A model generated the notes under the pieces. That model worked only from the letters and a program-made list of their open reading frames with translations. It did not search any database and was not told the origin of the DNA. From IMG/VR virus record IMGVR_UViG_3300042340_000066: DNA of 20,000 nt, one strand, 5' to 3'. The stretch's first letter is position 1, and each line of letters starts with the position of its first letter. This document shows, piece after piece, positions 9,692 to 18,363 of this stretch. A program made the translations under genes and the position numbers. The DNA comes from an uncultured virus (IMG/VR IMGVR_UViG_3300042340_000066). Its lineage: Duplodnaviria > Heunggongvirae > Uroviricota > Caudoviricetes.

Positions 9692-11662
9692 TTAGGCTCC
9701 TTTAAGAGCTTCTACTTCGGTTTTGAGTTCTTGCACGGCTTTAACCAGCATAGCAATTATCGCTCTATCGTATATGCCTTGCCCCGTTGGAGAGGCTTCT
9801 TGGCTAACTGCTTGCACCTCTTGAGCATAAAAACCTAGTTGCCTTCCTTCTTCAAGGTTAGCATTACCTTCTTCATCTTTCCAATAAAAGTAACGCGGCT
9901 GCAGTGCATCTATTTTAGAGAGGCCGTCTTCTACAAACCCGTCAGCTATTTTTAAGTTTTGGTCTGAGAGGATCGTTAGTGTGCCCGTGCCCACCCCCGC
10001 AGTGACAGTACCGCCAGCAGCTAAGTTAGGTATCGTTACAGCGCCCCCTGTGCCTATGGCTAATCTAACTTCATAAATGTTTAATGTGCTTAATTGCGCT
10101 AATACTAATGGCCTATATGTAGAAGCGGCTGTATTAACAGACAAAATAGCGGGGAAATAGTCAGAGCCATTAAAGACAGTGTCTACACTAACATACCCTG
10201 ATGGAGAACCGCTATTCTGAACATTTAACGCCCCAGTCATCGTGGAGCCGGTTTTTAGTACGTAACCGCTAGCGGCTACACCGCCCAAAGCATTTGCATT
10301 CGTGGCGTTTGTAGCTGTCGTGGCACTTACCGCATTCGTAGCGTTCGTGGCGTTTGTAGCGTTTACCGCATTCGTGGCGTTTGTAGCTGTCGTGGCTGTT
10401 GTTGCATTCGTAGCGTTTGTTGCATTCGTAGCGGTAGCGGCATTGCCTGCAATACTGATGGCCCAAGTACCCGAAGCGTTGGAACCATTAGCATCGCATT
10501 TGCCGTCAAACGTGTTCCAGTCCGTGGAGGTTAAATAGCCGTTTTGTGAAGTGCTGGCTATATTCATGGACAAATTAACCGCCGTAGTGCCTGTAGCGGT
10601 CAAAGGAGAAGTTGCCGTAACCGAAGTGACCGTACCTCCTCCAACAAGCTGAAGATTGATATTTCCACTCAAATCCGCACTCGCCGTGCCATTGACCTGA
10701 AGCCCCGTGCCTACTGTAATGGTCCTCGTCTGGGGGACAAAAGTGCTCGCGGCTTGAGATGACGCCGCCGCTATCTCTCCATCTACATAGCTCTTATTGG
10801 TAGCCTGAGTGCCACTCAAGGGAGCGTTGGGGAGAATAAGCTGCGCGGAGCCACTTAGGGAGACATTTGTAGAAAATGTCTTAGTGCCAGAAATCGTCTG
10901 GACAGTGGTGAGCCCTACAAAGTTACTGTCTGCGTATCCTTTAGTGATTACATCATCATTATCAACAGCCGCTTGGGTTAATTTCAGCCTAGGGATCATG
11001 GTCTGAGTGCTTTCACCCGCCGCTTTCCACAAATAGTTGCTATTGACGTAGTTGTACGAGGTGGCTTGGTTGCCTGTGGGTGTCGCTACGGGCAGAGTGA
11101 CGGTGCCTGTAAATGTAGTGTTGCCCGTGACGGTATTGGCCCCTGCATTGATGAAAAATTTCCCATCTACATAGCCTTTGTTTACGGCATGTGTGTTGAC
11201 CGTGGGGGTGCCTGTCAGTGTAAGGAAGTTCAGCGCAGTAAAGGCTTCTTGGAAATCCGTGCCGTTGTAGATGACCGTCTTCGTCATGTTGGCTGGAATC
11301 GTTACGCCCGTAGTGGCTGGGAGTTTGATCGTGACCGCATAAGATGTTGATCGGTTGATGACGGTATAGAGCTTGCCCGATGAGGCTGTGACCGCACTGG
11401 CGGGGACCACGATGTTTGAGTCTGCACTGATCGTAATAGCCGGGACCACCAGACACATCTGCCTTGACTGATCGTTAGCACCATTGAGCGCCGTCAGCGT
11501 AAGTGAGTTAGCCACCCAACCCGAAGAGAGCTCTACACGCCCTGCGATAGAACTTTCCAGCAACGTGCCTAGATTGGTGTTGGTGGTGTTGCCCCACGTA
11601 TTGGCCTGCTCACCCGAGGCGATGAGTTCGAGTCTAAGATTAGATGAATATGATGAAGGCAT
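9692..11662 (-). CDS. Tail fibre protein with C-terminal intramolecular chaperone (Peptidase S74-like), 656 aa
   Basis: N-terminal anchor SSYSSNLRLELIASGEQANTWGNTTNTNL; repeated AVNKGYVD/ITKGYAD/ATNKSYVD motifs; NGYLTSTDWNTF motif; ATN repeats; C-terminal SDQNLK...KIDALQPRYFYWK...LGFYAQEV...LVKAVQELKTEVEALK (9692-9967). Confidence 0.85.
   Translation of the reverse strand: MPSSYSSNLRLELIASGEQANTWGNTTNTNLGTLLESSIAGRVELSSGWVANSLTLTALNGANDQSRQMCLVVPAITISADSNIVVPASAVTASSGKLYTVINRSTSYAVTIKLPATTGVTIPANMTKTVIYNGTDFQEAFTALNFLTLTGTPTVNTHAVNKGYVDGKFFINAGANTVTGNTTFTGTVTLPVATPTGNQATSYNYVNSNYLWKAAGESTQTMIPRLKLTQAAVDNDDVITKGYADSNFVGLTTVQTISGTKTFSTNVSLSGSAQLILPNAPLSGTQATNKSYVDGEIAAASSQAASTFVPQTRTITVGTGLQVNGTASADLSGNINLQLVGGGTVTSVTATSPLTATGTTAVNLSMNIASTSQNGYLTSTDWNTFDGKCDANGSNASGTWAISIAGNAATATNATNATNATTATTATNATNAVNATNATNATNAVSATTATNATNANALGGVAASGYVLKTGSTMTGALNVQNSGSPSGYVSVDTVFNGSDYFPAILSVNTAASTYRPLVLAQLSTLNIYEVRLAIGTGGAVTIPNLAAGGTVTAGVGTGTLTILSDQNLKIADGFVEDGLSKIDALQPRYFYWKDEEGNANLEEGRQLGFYAQEVQAVSQEASPTGQGIYDRAIIAMLVKAVQELKTEVEALKGA
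10285..10445 (-). repeat. 9-bp/tripeptide (ATN)n coding repeat containing a perfect 29-bp direct repeat
   Basis: Translation NAATATNATNATNATTATTATNATNAVNATNATNATNAVSATTATNATNANA. The sequence gcattcgtggcgtttgtagctgtcgtggc occurs at 10296-10324 and 10368-10396. Confidence 0.9.
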
Positions 11663-12809: not shown

Positions 12810-12998
12810 CTAGCCTACGGACGGTTTGCGCTTTGTGAAAACGCTGATAACACCAAAAACGGCAAGGCCCGCTTGAATAATAGCCGTCTGCTGAGCAGGA
12901 TCAATCTGCAGTCCCACTGCAGTCAACAGCATTACAATCCCGCGCCACGTACTCGCCTCGCCTAATGCAATACCAAATCTGTCTACTAAAGCACCCAT
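12810..12998 (-). CDS. Putative holin (62 aa, two hydrophobic segments)
   Basis: EASTWRGIVMLLTAVG and IIQAGLAVFGVISVF hydrophobic segments, basic C-tail KRK, strong AGGAG RBS, downstream of the endolysin. Confidence 0.7.
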   Translation of the reverse strand: MGALVDRFGIALGEASTWRGIVMLLTAVGLQIDPAQQTAIIQAGLAVFGVISVFTKRKPSVG

Positions 12999-13007
12999 TG
13001 TATTCTC

Positions 13008-13136
13008 CTAATCCCAAAAGTAAGTCACAACACCATACATAAACACCAACAGAAAAGAGACCGTCAGACAGGCATATACCAGCCCTTCGGCTAATAGCTC
13101 AACAGGGGTCTTGTCTTTGGGGTTGCGGGGTTTCAT
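13008..13136 (-). CDS. Small single-pass membrane protein (42 aa), possible lysis accessory
   Basis: Not in the ORF track. MKPRNPKDKTPVELLAEGLVYACLTVSFLLVFMYGVVTYFWD; ATGA overlap with the endolysin stop; fills the gap before the holin. Confidence 0.65.
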   Translation of the reverse strand: MKPRNPKDKTPVELLAEGLVYACLTVSFLLVFMYGVVTYFWD

Positions 13137-13696
13137 ATTTTCGCTAGTTGGAAGTGGGGTCCGTCAGGAAAAGATTTAGACATGTCCGCTGGCCCTAGTT
13201 TGTGCGAAGAGTCATTCAGGTACTTCCAGTTTGCGCCCCACTTAACCCGAACATTCAATTCTTTCGCAGCTTGCCGCATAGCTTCAGCTACCGGAAAATA
13301 ATACTTCCAATCCCAAGTTACTTTGCCATCTACGAGCGGAGCGATATCTACTGCATGGCCCGTGATGTGGAAACTGTTCATGGTTTTGCTTGCGCCCTTG
13401 GCGACAAGCTGTTTCTGCCGCTCCTTAGTTCGGAGCCCTTCCAGCACTGTGAAGTCAATGGGAGTCAATTCAATCGCTCTCCTGACCACTTTAACCAAAT
13501 CAGGATGTACACCTTTAAGACGCGCTAGCGATGTAGCCCCTAGCTGGAATTTTGGTTTGGGTGGAGAGTTGGGTGTAACGGCATTGGTAATGCTAGGTTT
13601 GAGCTTGTCGAGAAGAGGTTTTAGCTCGGGTCTGTCTTTCAACAGGAATACCAAGTCTTCGACTTCCTCGCTAGTCAATGCAACCGTTACACCCAT
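13133..13696 (-). CDS. Endolysin, M15-family Zn peptidase (L-Ala-D-Glu peptidase type), 187 aa with N-terminal extension
   Basis: LKGVHPDL...DFTVLEGLRTKERQKQLV.KGAS.TMNSFHITGHAVD...WGANW...DGPHFQL carries the SxH-x6-D and DxxH zinc motifs. I prefer the ATG at 13696 (GGAG RBS) over the track's 13786 start, which lies inside the upstream 51-aa gene. Confidence 0.9.
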   Translation of the reverse strand: MGVTVALTSEEVEDLVFLLKDRPELKPLLDKLKPSITNAVTPNSPPKPKFQLGATSLARLKGVHPDLVKVVRRAIELTPIDFTVLEGLRTKERQKQLVAKGASKTMNSFHITGHAVDIAPLVDGKVTWDWKYYFPVAEAMRQAAKELNVRVKWGANWKYLNDSSHKLGPADMSKSFPDGPHFQLAKI

Positions 13697-13700
13697 AACC

Positions 13701-13856
13701 TTACTCCGCTGCTTCGGTTTCTTCCTGTGGCAACTGCCCCTTGGCCTGCTCCTGAATGCCATTGATGAGTCCTGCGACTTCCACAAAAGGCTTGGTGCCC
13801 AGATAGTTCAGGATCGCGTTCAAAAGCTCTACACTGATTTCAATTTTAGGCTGCAT
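13701..13856 (-). CDS. Small helical protein (51 aa), tail-fibre-associated type
   Basis: Not in the ORF track. MQPKIEISVELLNAILNYLGTKPFVEVAGLINGIQEQAKGQLPQEETEAAE resembles small proteins I recall following tail fibre genes in aquatic phages. It ends 4 nt before the lysin ATG. Confidence 0.75.
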   Translation of the reverse strand: MQPKIEISVELLNAILNYLGTKPFVEVAGLINGIQEQAKGQLPQEETEAAE

Positions 13857-13890: not shown

Positions 13891-13920
13891 AGTGTAGCAG
13901 GTTTTATTCTTCCGGCTCAA
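13891..13920 (-). promoter_or_regulatory. Candidate sigma70-like promoter upstream of the 51-aa gene and lysis cassette
   Basis: Minus strand TTGAGC-N18-TACACT with TG at the extended -10 position (TGcTACACT); the -10 lies in one of the few intergenic gaps. Each box matches only 4/6 of consensus. Confidence 0.3.
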
Positions 13921-14052
13921 CAGGAGGGACCAAGTTAGCCCCGTCGTCACGAGCCATCGCTCTGTTAATGTAGTCTGAGAAGAGCGCTTCATGCACCGTC
14001 GCCACCGGGATTGTTTGACTAGGTTCGTGGAAAGCGTGATTTTTTCGGGCAT
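13904..14052 (-). pseudogene. Chimeric remnant: 5' end of a small-protein gene (MPEKITLSTNLV) joined out of frame to the 3' end of another gene (QTIPVATVHEALFSDYINRAMARDDGANLVPPVEPEE*)
   Basis: ATG at 14052 is 3 nt after the previous stop and its first 12 codons resemble the start of the 51-aa protein, after which the frame loses protein-like character. The -1 frame becomes protein-like from about 14019 and ends at TAA 13904. Confidence 0.55.
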
Positions 14053-14055
14053 GGT

Positions 14056-14418
14056 TTATTCCTCGATGGGGGTTATAGAAACAGGTGTCTGCCACGGCAA
14101 AGTTGGCGTGACGATAGGTGGATTGATTTGATTTTCGATCTGTGTGTCGATGCTTGTATATACAGCCGCGACTTGTTCTTCGCCCAATGCGTCCTGAGTC
14201 CACTGGATAGCCTGTGCTTCCGTAATGTCCTCGAAGGGCACGAAGTTGGGTTTGTCGGGATCGACAGTGAATGAGACAGTGCTATAACACGATCCGGTAT
14301 GCCCTTCGCCATCATCGCCGGAACAACGCCAGTGGCTGGTTACGACGTAATCAAGCATTCCATTAACATCTGGGATGCAGTCAAGTGCGGATATTTGCCA
14401 AGTGTATTGAGTAGTCAT
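14056..14418 (-). CDS. Tail-fibre-associated protein (120 aa; DUF7936-like by recollection)
   Basis: YTWQISALDC...VVTSHWR...FVPFEDITEAQAIQWTQDALG...IENQINPPIVTPTLPW is a pattern commonly found directly after tail fibre genes. AAGGT RBS. Confidence 0.65.
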   Translation of the reverse strand: MTTQYTWQISALDCIPDVNGMLDYVVTSHWRCSGDDGEGHTGSCYSTVSFTVDPDKPNFVPFEDITEAQAIQWTQDALGEEQVAAVYTSIDTQIENQINPPIVTPTLPWQTPVSITPIEE

Positions 14419-14433
14419 ATTAGTGGACCTTAA

Positions 14434-15765
14434 TTATACGGCAGCTCTAGTGCGTATCATGGCTATCCCAAAAGTTTGAGTAGAGCCAACATTGTTATAA
14501 ATGGCGTAGCTTGATCCAGTCCAACCCACACCTACTTGTCCCGCTGATGGGGTGCTGCTAACTACATAACTAGCATTTCCGCCGAGCTTGAATATTGAAC
14601 TTCCGCAGAGTAAATATACACCCGCTTCACCGGTAATGTGGCTATTCAAAACTATGAGACCCGACCCTGTAGCCAGTACAGCATTTGCGCCATTCGTTAA
14701 AGTAATTTGCGACCCTGAGTGGTCTATACCCCATTGCGATGTTGGGGTATTTGTAACAACGACTTTTCCGCCGCGCTCAACGGTATCGTTGACCAACAAA
14801 TTCCCCGCCGCTGTGATGCGGGCGCGTTCTGTATTATTAGTCCCAAAAACCAGCGGGTGGTTAGACGTTGCATATAAAGCAATACCGCCAACCCCTGACG
14901 GGGTTAATAGGCAAGTGTGTGTGCCATCTGTAATCCTAAACCCACCGTTTGTTGCACACAGTACATCCAGCCTAGTCCCCGGCGAACTCGTCCCAATCCC
15001 GACATTCCCAGACGCATCCTTGTAAATCTGGTTAGTGCCGATGGCGATAACGCCCGTGCCGCCTGTAAGAGTGCCGGTATAGCTAAGATTGGTGAAAGTA
15101 CCCGCTGCGGCTGTGCCGCTTCCGATTGCTCCCGGCGCTGCAAACGTCGCACCGTTCAGAGAGCTTGCGTTGAGGTTTGCGACATTAGTGGTAGAAGCTA
15201 CAGTAAAAGGCGCTGTGCCGGTTGCAACAGTCGAGGTGATGGTCGTAAACCGACCTGTACTTGCCGTAGCGCCACCGATAGCAGGAGGTGAGGCGAGGTA
15301 GTTACTAAAGCCAGTACCAGAGACGGTAGAGGAAGCCGAAAGAGTAGTAAAGGCCCCTGTGCCTGCGGTTGTGTTGCCGATGTTGACGCTGTTTAGCGTC
15401 TGAGTCCAGCTTGGGTTCGTGCCGTCTGTAGTGAGGACGTAGCCGCTTTTGCTGTCTTGGTTGGGGACCAGTGAGCGCGTGGGCGCGGAGCAAAATACTC
15501 GTTTAGTACCAGAAGAAAAGTTGACTAGCGCACCGCTATTAGACGAGGCGATGACCGTAGTACGAGATAGTGTACCTGTAGTAACAAGGGTACCTATGCC
15601 AATTTCCCACTCGCCAATGCCGTTATCTATAGTGTAAAAGAGCACATCGCCCGTAGTGAATCCCGCAGCAAATGTAATGTACCCAGTAACAGCACCAGCC
15701 AAAGTAATCGTGCCGGTACCGCCAGTAGTAGTGGTCTCTTGGACCCGATTTTGCATCTTAGGCAC
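14434..15765 (-). CDS. Tail fibre / receptor-binding protein (443 aa)
   Basis: GTG start with GGAG RBS; N-terminal NRVQETTTTGGTGTITLAGAV...WEIGIGT...LSRTTVIASSN...VNFSSGTKRVF anchor; GYVLTTDGTNPSW, IGxTTxxxGxFTTL repeats, GTAPFTVASTTNVANLNA, GNVGIGTSSP and FGTNNTERARITAAGNLLV fibre motifs. Confidence 0.85.
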   Translation of the reverse strand: MPKMQNRVQETTTTGGTGTITLAGAVTGYITFAAGFTTGDVLFYTIDNGIGEWEIGIGTLVTTGTLSRTTVIASSNSGALVNFSSGTKRVFCSAPTRSLVPNQDSKSGYVLTTDGTNPSWTQTLNSVNIGNTTAGTGAFTTLSASSTVSGTGFSNYLASPPAIGGATASTGRFTTITSTVATGTAPFTVASTTNVANLNASSLNGATFAAPGAIGSGTAAAGTFTNLSYTGTLTGGTGVIAIGTNQIYKDASGNVGIGTSSPGTRLDVLCATNGGFRITDGTHTCLLTPSGVGGIALYATSNHPLVFGTNNTERARITAAGNLLVNDTVERGGKVVVTNTPTSQWGIDHSGSQITLTNGANAVLATGSGLIVLNSHITGEAGVYLLCGSSIFKLGGNASYVVSSTPSAGQVGVGWTGSSYAIYNNVGSTQTFGIAMIRTRAAV

Positions 15766-16209: not shown

Positions 16210-16323
16210 TTATACCTCTTCGGAAATTTCAAATTCTGCGTCGGGCTCAAAGTGGTCGGCCATCACAGCGACATCATTGAGAGTAAATTCTATAATCTGA
16301 TCTACTTCGTTTTCTTCGTTCAT
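16210..16323 (-). CDS. Tiny acidic protein (37 aa)
   Basis: Not in the ORF track. MNEENEVDQIIEFTLNDVAVMADHFEPDAEFEISEEV; ATGA overlap with the upstream stop; ends 3 nt before the next ATG and fills the gap exactly. Confidence 0.6.
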   Translation of the reverse strand: MNEENEVDQIIEFTLNDVAVMADHFEPDAEFEISEEV

Positions 16324-16961
16324 ACGACTTGATCTCTAACTTGGGTTGTTCTGAAATTGTCTTCGCGGTTTTTCGCATCTCCAAGCATTTTAAGAAGTCC
16401 CATCGCTTCATTATACTTGTTCTGGTAGTTCTGCGTCATATCCGCTTCGCCTTTCAGAAAGACAGAGGCTTCAACCAATGAGCCCCACAACAGCACAGAG
16501 GGGTAGTTCTGGCCCAACCAGCTAGTCCCTGCGTCAACAATAGACTGCGGAGCCGCGTAGTAATGAAGCTCCATCGTGTAATTCACGTCTGGAGTCGGGC
16601 CTAGAATAAACGCAGTAGAACTAAACAGACCGTAGTATTTTGGCTCACCGATAGCCGTTGGAAACGGGTAGGCTTCACGGATGTAGTTCACATCTTTCTG
16701 CAGGAGGTAAGTGTAGTTACCGCTAGCGTCAATGGTTGCCATTGAAAACACAGACAAAAAGTCTGATGGCATGTTGAGGTACTGAAACAACTGAGTGGCT
16801 TCGCCCGTAACATTACGTCTGAATGCTGGGAGTTGAACGGTGTTGTTGACCAGTAGCTCTGTATTCTTTACAAAGTTAGGGATGTTTGCGTTGAACGTGG
16901 GCTCGTCAACTTCACTATATTGCTGAATGGCATCGTAAAGCTGCTGGTACGTCAGGCTCAT
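16320..16961 (-). CDS. Head-tail adaptor / tail tubular protein A-like (213 aa)
   Basis: LTYQQLYDAIQQY...IPNFVKNTE helix, YLNMPSDFL, GEPKYYG, FILGPTPDVNYTMELHYY, TSWLGQNYPSVLLWGSLVEA: the pattern of podovirus adaptor ring proteins. Confidence 0.65.
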   Translation of the reverse strand: MSLTYQQLYDAIQQYSEVDEPTFNANIPNFVKNTELLVNNTVQLPAFRRNVTGEATQLFQYLNMPSDFLSVFSMATIDASGNYTYLLQKDVNYIREAYPFPTAIGEPKYYGLFSSTAFILGPTPDVNYTMELHYYAAPQSIVDAGTSWLGQNYPSVLLWGSLVEASVFLKGEADMTQNYQNKYNEAMGLLKMLGDAKNREDNFRTTQVRDQVV

Positions 16962-17658: not shown

Positions 17659-18363
17659 TTACCAGCCTCCGCCTCCTACATAGCTGATAGCGGGAACAAA
17701 TCTTACCGAAGCTCTCTGCCTATCTTCGTCTGCGGCTAACTGGAAGGCTTCGTCGTATATCTGTTTCAGCATCGGGATTCGCCCTTCAGCTTCAGGAGTC
17801 TTGATAGAGAGATAGTATGCCAACCCAGCGATCAAAGCGGGGACAAATCTGAACGGCATATCGGCGGTATTCGTACCTGCGGAACCGGTATCATCCATTC
17901 TACGGAGCTTCCAATACACCAGCTTGTACCCGTCTACATTGGGGGCAGGCCAGATTCTCGCTATCGGTGCGTCCGTTTGGCGGTCTACAAAAATCTGAAT
18001 GGGCCTGCCTGTAGCGAGTTTGTTGGGAATTGTGGCATAAGTAGAGACACTAATACGGGCTATCTGCAGGTCTACTTGCGTGGTGGGATTGCCATCATTC
18101 TGCCGTACAACGGTTTCAAGCAGGTCTATGGTGTCTGCAGGGAGAGGGTAATTGCTTACGCCCACGCTCAAATTCAAAGAACCCTGTTCGATTGTCCATA
18201 GGTTTAGACCACGCGAAGCCCATTCTTGAAACAGCAAATTGAGGCTGCGCCTCGCCGTTTTGAACTGATAACCCGTGCGTACCTCAACCCCGACTCTCTC
18301 AAAGGCTTCTTCGATGATTTCGGCAAAATCAGGAGTCCAAGTCGCTGTGCCTGAAGTGGTCAT
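17659..18363 (-). CDS. Head-tail adaptor / head completion protein (P22 gp4-like N-terminus, 234 aa)
   Basis: EIIEEAFERVG...ARRSLNLLFQEWASRGLNLW helix pair, YPLPADTID, GRPIQIF, IWPAPN, PFRFVPALIAGLAYYLS. Confidence 0.65.
   Translation of the reverse strand: MTTSGTATWTPDFAEIIEEAFERVGVEVRTGYQFKTARRSLNLLFQEWASRGLNLWTIEQGSLNLSVGVSNYPLPADTIDLLETVVRQNDGNPTTQVDLQIARISVSTYATIPNKLATGRPIQIFVDRQTDAPIARIWPAPNVDGYKLVYWKLRRMDDTGSAGTNTADMPFRFVPALIAGLAYYLSIKTPEAEGRIPMLKQIYDEAFQLAADEDRQRASVRFVPAISYVGGGGW

Follow-up and report, generated by a model that had tools for sequence, protein, structure and literature searches.

Why does an endolysin of an otherwise well-known type carry about 48 additional residues ahead of its catalytic domain, and is this extension related to the 51-residue protein encoded directly upstream, as a sequence-only reading of the locus had proposed? 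The window analysed here is the whole 20,000-nucleotide stretch from an uncultured tailed phage. It covers a morphogenesis and lysis region whose genes are read on the minus strand, in the order fibre-like gene, DUF7936 gene, a broken stretch, the 51-aa gene, the endolysin, a 42-aa membrane gene and a 62-aa holin-like gene (Table 1). The same endolysin and 51-aa protein were found as a pair at 100% protein identity in three viral contigs, and a scan of 185,579 prokaryote genomes returned no prophage copy of the lysin module. The window contains two separate fibre-like genes, both on the minus strand: one (9692-11662) ends in a Peptidase_S74 chaperone domain, and the other (14434-15765), which gave no significant Pfam or PHROG match, has a conserved 5' part and an apparently exchangeable tip. 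Besides, two minus-strand genes at 16320-16961 and 17659-18363 both match Pfam SU10_adaptor (PF24175) and are a possible paralogous pair of head-tail adaptors.

Table 1. Features of the lysis and fibre region, in window coordinates, with the basis of each assignment.
Feature	Position	Strand	Basis
Endolysin, 187 aa, M15C L-Ala-D-Glu peptidase type with N-terminal module	13133..13696	-	Peptidase_M15_4 (PF13539) 36.9 bits, cut-off 25; phrog_465 endolysin E 7e-65; fold match to ChiX, LysECD7 and T5 endolysin
N-terminal module, residues 1-34: extended segment, helix, turn, helix; acidic, pI 4.7	13595..13696	-	conservation in 9 variants; pN/pS; AlphaFold2; charge
Pro/Ser/Thr-rich linker, residues 35-48	13553..13594	-	distant variants share 1-2 of 14 residues; pLDDT <50 at 37-47
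Catalytic domain, residues 49-187, basic, pI 9.9; S108-x-H110...D117 and D178-x-x-H181	13133..13552	-	Pfam, Foldseek, motif check
Ribosome-binding site, GGAG with 7-nt spacer; overlaps end and stop codon of 51-aa gene	13697..13707	-	sequence; homologues with same start codon
Stand-alone 51-aa protein of a widespread family of small phage proteins without annotation	13701..13856	-	family alignments; structure-library matches
Recombination scar	13904..14052	-	blastn match to L018, L021 and L070 from 14016; intact gene in L018 and L021; weak family-profile match
DUF7936 protein; commonest upstream neighbour of the small family	14056..14418	-	PF25590 E 4e-28; 18 of 72 upstream neighbours scanned
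Tail-fibre-like gene, distal part probably exchangeable	14434..15765	-	Gly/Thr-rich; 5' part 97% common with L018, 3' part not
42-aa single-membrane-span gene	13008..13136	-	directly after lysin in extended-lysin loci
62-aa two-membrane-span gene, putative holin	12810..12998	-	hydrophobic sequence and position; phrog_8494 (unknown function) E 0.002; travels with extended lysin

The catalytic part of the lysin matched the T5 endolysin, ChiX and LysECD7 in Foldseek searches (E 9e-14 to 2e-10, 38-50% identity), and its metal-site residues (S108/H110/D117 and D178/H181) were intact in the arrangement SxH-x6-D plus distal DxxH, which we take to be the zinc-site motifs of M15C endolysins. By sequence and fold, the lysin is an ordinary M15C peptidase of the T5/ChiX/LysECD7 group, with predicted L-Ala-D-Glu cleavage. 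A 16-residue insertion at about residues 158-174 (window about 13170-13220, minus strand) is present in the window and in L004/5 and absent in P0003, L059, L066 and L068. Since P0003 is identical to the window lysin over the first 130 residues and yet lacks this insertion, the C-terminal half of the lysin appears to have been exchanged by recombination. Such exchange is probably what lies behind the poor resolution of the lysin tree, in which the branching was not resolved and a single origin of the extension is allowed.

We found that the extension itself is real. The start codon of the lysin is the ATG at 13696; a GGAG, which overlaps the 3' end of the upstream 51-aa gene, precedes it with a spacing of 7 nt. 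The roughly 48 extra residues that the sequence-only reading had noticed, together with the peptides it quoted and the Pro-rich linker, are all present. Homologues start at the same codon as the window lysin or at a GTG after AGGAG (L371). No in-frame ATG, GTG or TTG was found between codons 20 and 66 of the window lysin, nor in codons 2-70 of L004, so that translation cannot begin at the catalytic domain; the earlier reading had named such a start as the outcome that would speak against it, and with no usable start codon in this interval it is ruled out. The ORF finder also listed a TTG start at 13786, which we rejected because it overlaps the 51-aa gene and homologues use the codon at 13696. 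Unextended relatives begin 1-2 residues before the linker end in seven of the eight non-module rows, the eighth being Moraxella phage Mcat9. The extension is a conserved, translated and flexibly linked module of the lysis cassette.

Nine variants of the module were collected, all of them N-terminal and before the same catalytic-domain start; one, P0023, departs from the catalytic sequence about 20 residues into this domain and is unrelated from there on. Distant pairs among six genes had pN values of 0.12-0.27 over residues 2-34, compared with pS values of 0.72-0.99 at which synonymous change is saturated. Judged by these substitution patterns, the module is under purifying selection and the linker is free. 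AlphaFold2, run with 11 sequences, predicted an extended stretch over residues 1-8, helices at 9-19 and 23-36 (pLDDT about 75-79) and a disordered linker, with a pTM of 0.66 for the lysin. With 12 charged residues among the first 34 and a best 19-residue hydropathy of 1.15, the module has no membrane-type stretch. It also lacks any uncharged hydrophobic run of about 15-20 residues, and we agree with the earlier view that it is neither a signal peptide nor a SAR sequence.

No carrier of the module was found outside this lysin clade, whose extended members sit in three unrelated backbones represented by the window lineage, L059/L074 and L371/L373, the last having the extended lysin after genes that by eye resemble those for a tail tube and a tail chaperone. 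Three of 1.84 billion representatives matched the module profile: two begin like the lysin, and the third was a chance match to a repeat protein. Stand-alone copies were found neither among these representatives nor in viral, metagenome and genome scans, and the ESM Atlas held no match for the module. L064/65 and L360 were rejected as carriers, being chance matches. Among cultured phages, only one of 1333 records with a relative covers 80% of the query, that of Mcat9; its longer N-terminal part looks different from the module and is presumably a peptidoglycan-binding-like segment. A match to the endolysin of Escherichia phage 26 was discarded because it lay on the opposite strand.

In each of the three backbones the extended lysin is followed by a membrane gene of 33-42 aa and then by a holin-like gene of 60-62 aa. 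Wherever the DNA downstream of an extended lysin was viewed, the small membrane gene came next; it also follows some unextended lysins (present in L025 and L107, absent in L018 and L021). This single-span gene, for which no family match was obtained, is a candidate antiholin or lysis regulator. The extended lysin has been kept under selection and has spread together with its cassette (lysin, small membrane gene and holin-like gene) into at least three unrelated backbones.

The 51-aa protein had no match in Pfam, PHROG or NCBIfam, and PDB sequence and fold searches gave no clear match, the best having a Z of 4.3 and representing generic helix pairs. Its 30 best matches in a viral structure library were all uncharacterised or unnamed proteins of 42-96 aa, and only unnamed clusters were returned by the ESM Atlas. 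Scanning with a DNA pattern built from nine residues of the 51-aa protein alone matched at least 120 viral stretches. Of 80 loci examined among the matches listed, 77 had an ATG-started frame, corresponding to 75 distinct proteins; all 75, among these listed matches, were stand-alone frames of 42-82 aa. The family has a length of 42-66 residues (median 54) and is net acidic (median -3), and its free members end in tails rich in Ala, Glu, Gln and Pro. AlphaFold2 with 122 sequences predicted for the 51-aa protein an ordered extended segment (residues 1-8) and helices at 9-19 and 24-39 (pLDDT 86-97). No other fusion of the family domain was found, in what is a weak test; one longer protein carrying the domain was set aside because it looks like a chimeric gene call.

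Of 100 upstream neighbours called, the 72 from loci with full flanks were scanned; they included 18 DUF7936 proteins, 15 RegA, 4 S74 fibres, 3 Gly-rich proteins, 2 tail-assembly chaperones, 2 carbohydrate-binding proteins, 1 lysin and 1 Hsp20, as well as 5 other proteins and 21 without assignment. In T4-like phages (L240, L247, L248, L255 and others; L269, L285; L355), the family gene lies directly after regA, a second setting unrelated to fibres or lysis. Hsp20 adjoins the family gene twice, in L269 and L285. Weak matches in cultured phages lay after a fibre gene in Paracoccus phage KLEP18-1 and Thiohalocapsa phage MD04, after a tailspike-region gene in CAU_YEP3 and after regA in BUCT-ZZ01. 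A lysin was the next gene in one weak match out of 55 scanned, from 87 neighbours of the broad family.

Is the module a member of this family? The sequence-only reading had called it a paralogue of the adjacent protein, with an almost gapless alignment. Between the two proteins themselves the likeness was at chance level: BLASTP gave an E of 2.2 in a register other than the proposed one, identity in the proposed register was 5/30, and the module profile reached a probability of 0.6-1% against the narrow subfamily of the 51-aa protein. The supposedly shared [KR]P turn did not hold up either, Pro being present in only 4 of the 9 module variants. What stood was the layout of strand, helix and helix, alike in the two AlphaFold2 predictions, and the register, which reappeared with a 2-residue gap when the wider family was used. 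A family profile chosen without the lysin, from a non-circular set selected by a pattern of 51-aa protein residues only, matched the module with a probability of 65% when 8 variants were used and 71% when 9 were used, over 32 columns. The first broad set had given 79%, but we discount this value as circular: part of the motif used to choose that set came from the module itself.

The profile match has to be weighed against chance resemblance, i.e., the possibility that its two amphipathic helices, with an N-cap motif of a common kind, have no link to the family and work inside the lysis cassette, for example by docking on the holin or on the small membrane protein at its cytoplasmic end. The match covers the strand and both helices (32-33 columns), and its score of 21-22 was reached by none of 100 column shuffles (7.3 +/- 1.4) and by none of 400 shuffles that preserve the hydrophobic pattern (9.6 +/- 2.8; also 0/100 in a further set). 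When the family profile was compared with 81 real families from the fetched loci, its best non-self match was the lysin family (22.6 over 33 columns); in the reverse direction, however, one of 79 unrelated families tied with it (20.99 over 22 columns compared with 20.83 over 33). With one free gap granted to all, the window module scored 21.4 bits and the best of 959 decoy proteins 17.3; 5 of the 9 variants outscored every decoy while the other 4 were outscored by 5 to 101 of them, the decoys being redundant and fibre-rich. A chance origin would agree with the HMM-to-sequence searches, which linked the two in neither direction (family HMM at most 3.3 bits, no match at E 10), and with the departures of the module from the family signature, in which the helix-1 Asn is replaced, Pro occurs in fewer than half of the variants and the aromatic residue of P-[FY] is deleted; the helix-1 Asn had been fixed by our search patterns, and divergent family members in cultured phages also lack it. 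The constant company of the small membrane and holin-like genes, wherever downstream DNA was viewed, would likewise suit a docking role, but the membrane gene accompanies unextended lysins too, and the N-terminal position and total length of the extension fit a whole captured gene. We therefore regard chance resemblance as unlikely, though it deserves to be taken seriously, and on the profile evidence the module is quite probably homologous to the 51-aa family, if remotely.

Such homology does not make the module a local duplicate. In likeness to the module the neighbouring 51-aa protein ranked 119 of 122 family members, whereas the best members had 11-13 identities in 30; the non-circular scan supplied three of the six most similar. 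As the neighbour is among the least similar members, local tandem duplication was not supported, and of the earlier claim only the remote, family-level relationship is probably right. By these comparisons the module, if derived from the family at all, would come from another branch than its neighbour.

A captured family member might act within its own chain, as an acidic cap that masks the basic catalytic domain or aids folding or solubility until release. The opposite charges of the two parts and the 14-residue flexible linker would permit such contact, and the settings in which the family is found, after fibre genes and after regA with Hsp20 adjoining in two loci, suggest a folding-helper role. 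Against this, the AlphaFold2 model, with its moderate pTM and disordered linker, offered no readable fixed contact, and close unextended relatives whose catalytic domains are 51-66% identical do without any cap. This explanation therefore appears improbable to us.

The sequence-only reading went further and proposed that lysin and small protein form a hetero-oligomer, in which the free 51-aa partner could tether the enzyme to the fibre or virion, inhibit it or time lysis. A probable common fold, the adjacency and translational coupling of the two genes in the window and in L066-L070, and the existence of two-component endolysins in Gram-positive phages, as described in the available text of PMC6832245, are compatible with this idea. 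The gene contexts gave it no support. Among the seven extended-lysin types with known context, three have a family gene directly upstream (window, L066/69 and L067/68/70) and four have none adjacent (L004/5/71, L059/72/73, L074 and L371/373); records G002, G003, G004, G011 and G012 likewise yielded none, but as fragments of 10-45% completeness they may come from genomes with a copy elsewhere. Conversely, 51-aa genes with 88-94% identity in L018, L021 and L025, and one with 52% in L107, precede a different, unextended lysin of 142 aa, and no relative of the window lysin was found in records G006, G007 (77% complete) and G010. The lysin and the 51-aa gene are uncoupled in both directions. Since the 51-aa relative comes and goes independently, a dedicated partnership with the lysin is unlikely; together with the 15 of 72 family genes that follow regA, away from fibres and lysins, and the low rank of the neighbour in likeness to the module, this leaves the pairing very doubtful, and co-occurrence supports neither tether nor inhibitor nor timer. 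As gene context showed, the lysin is independent of the 51-aa gene, a member of another family branch that travels together with the tail-fibre block.

The 142-aa lysin of L018 (3175-3603), L021, L025 and L107, all close relatives of the window phage, has M15-like motifs by eye and was swapped in at the same position with flanking genes kept. Traces of exchange were also found just upstream of the 51-aa gene, where what looks like a second family gene breaks off after its first 12 codons and runs on, in another reading frame, into the final third of a 119-aa gene. In blastn comparisons the window switches at 14016 from the DUF7936 fibre block into the tail of this 119-aa gene, which is whole in L018 and L021, and the 12 codons gave a weak family-profile match. 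The scar sequence is also present in L001 and is thus not an error of a single assembly. Judged from these alignments, the junction is a recombination hot spot. In L025 a long frame (1022-2317) lies upstream of the fibre block near an Asn-rich repeat; we take its features to recall the reverse transcriptase of a diversity-generating retroelement.

We tentatively favor a different explanation, to which we give somewhat less than an even chance: long ago the lysin would have captured a family gene in frame, and the captured piece, today a component of the lysis cassette, probably serves as a handle for self-association. A family gene would once have lain directly upstream of a single-domain M15C endolysin and become fused to it in frame, its folded part giving rise to residues 1-34 and its low-complexity tail to the linker. 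Capture is favored because unextended relatives begin at the linker end and the 43-48 added residues fit the length range of the family, because the extended lysin in L004/5/71 directly follows a fibre gene, a position often held by the small gene, and because free family proteins end in tails of the kind described above. It is weakened by the rarity of a lysin as the next gene in the broad family and by the fact that no second fusion turned up in the weak test above. As to function, the module would be a 34-residue amphipathic unit without a core of its own, held on a flexible linker, and such a unit needs a partner surface; the only constant partners are another copy of itself and a membrane protein of the cassette, which makes self-association the first choice. 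The lysin may then form a dimer or small oligomer in the cytoplasm, either bringing several catalytic heads together or keeping the enzyme packed until the holin releases it.

How does this lysin compare with known systems? Endolysins of the T5/LysECD7 type are mostly single-domain, and some have been studied as antibacterials. The catalytic domain of the window lysin resembles those of Serratia ChiX (PDB 5opz), LysECD7 (8q2g), the T5 endolysin (2mxz), the RB49 endolysin (23ri) and the lys protein of phage PY100 (Foldseek E 1e-10 to 1e-13), and PY100-type lysins share 65-67% identity with it over residues 50-184. The known M15C chains have 125-137 residues and match only the catalytic part, leaving the module without a counterpart in them.

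Lys170 and CTP1L, from phages of Gram-positive hosts, produce an identical free C-terminal cell-wall-binding domain from an internal start in the same gene, according to the available text of PMC6832245 (citing Proenca 2015 and Dunne 2016). As far as that text describes them, the resemblance is that a lysin domain also exists as a free small protein which could assemble with the full-length enzyme; the difference is that here the domain is N-terminal and its free relative is a separate gene with 5/30 identities that is not co-inherited. The window lysin was not assigned to this two-component type, because the free relative has its own gene and no internal start lies near the domain boundary. 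One could still imagine that the 51-aa family is a very common phage oligomerisation or folding-helper module captured by the endolysin, and that the free copy next door swaps into the lysin oligomer and tunes lysis, as an optional two-gene heteromer of the Lys170/CTP1L kind, probably in Gram-negative hosts, which would couple the timing of lysis to the exchange of tail-fibre cassettes; we consider this scenario hardly likely.

For the free family, the position after fibre genes recalls gp57A of phage T4, a small, oligomerising, non-virion helper of fibre folding with 79 residues and neither aromatic residues nor proline in the available text of PMC3004832. The 51-aa family differs from gp57A, as portrayed there, in its length of 42-66 aa and conserved P-[FY], the two being compared by size and gene context alone, and no library match links them; by this analogy a gp57A-like role in fibre folding may be taken as a lead. 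A further comparison concerned the strand-helix-helix order of the family. This order, with an alternating hydrophobic N-terminal strand, is that of the ribbon-helix-helix dimer fold (Arc/MetJ/CopG). Structure searches gave one viral protein named as ribbon-helix-helix, at rank 46 with a probability of 0.03, and no PDB match, and the family is net acidic, unlike DNA binders.

We found no publication on the extended-lysin architecture, DUF7936 or phage KLEP18-1 in a literature search that left most subscription journals uncovered. Compared with the systems above, the novelty is real but modest: a new N-terminal module, probably captured from a common unannotated family, on a well-known endolysin. 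As an architecture, it is neither a wall-binding domain nor a signal or SAR sequence, and it has been kept across three backbones. It also provides a first handle on a large unannotated phage family of about 50 residues found after tail-fibre genes or regA. If the module is an oligomerisation unit, this would explain the family and show how a lysin gained a domain by capturing the gene upstream of it.
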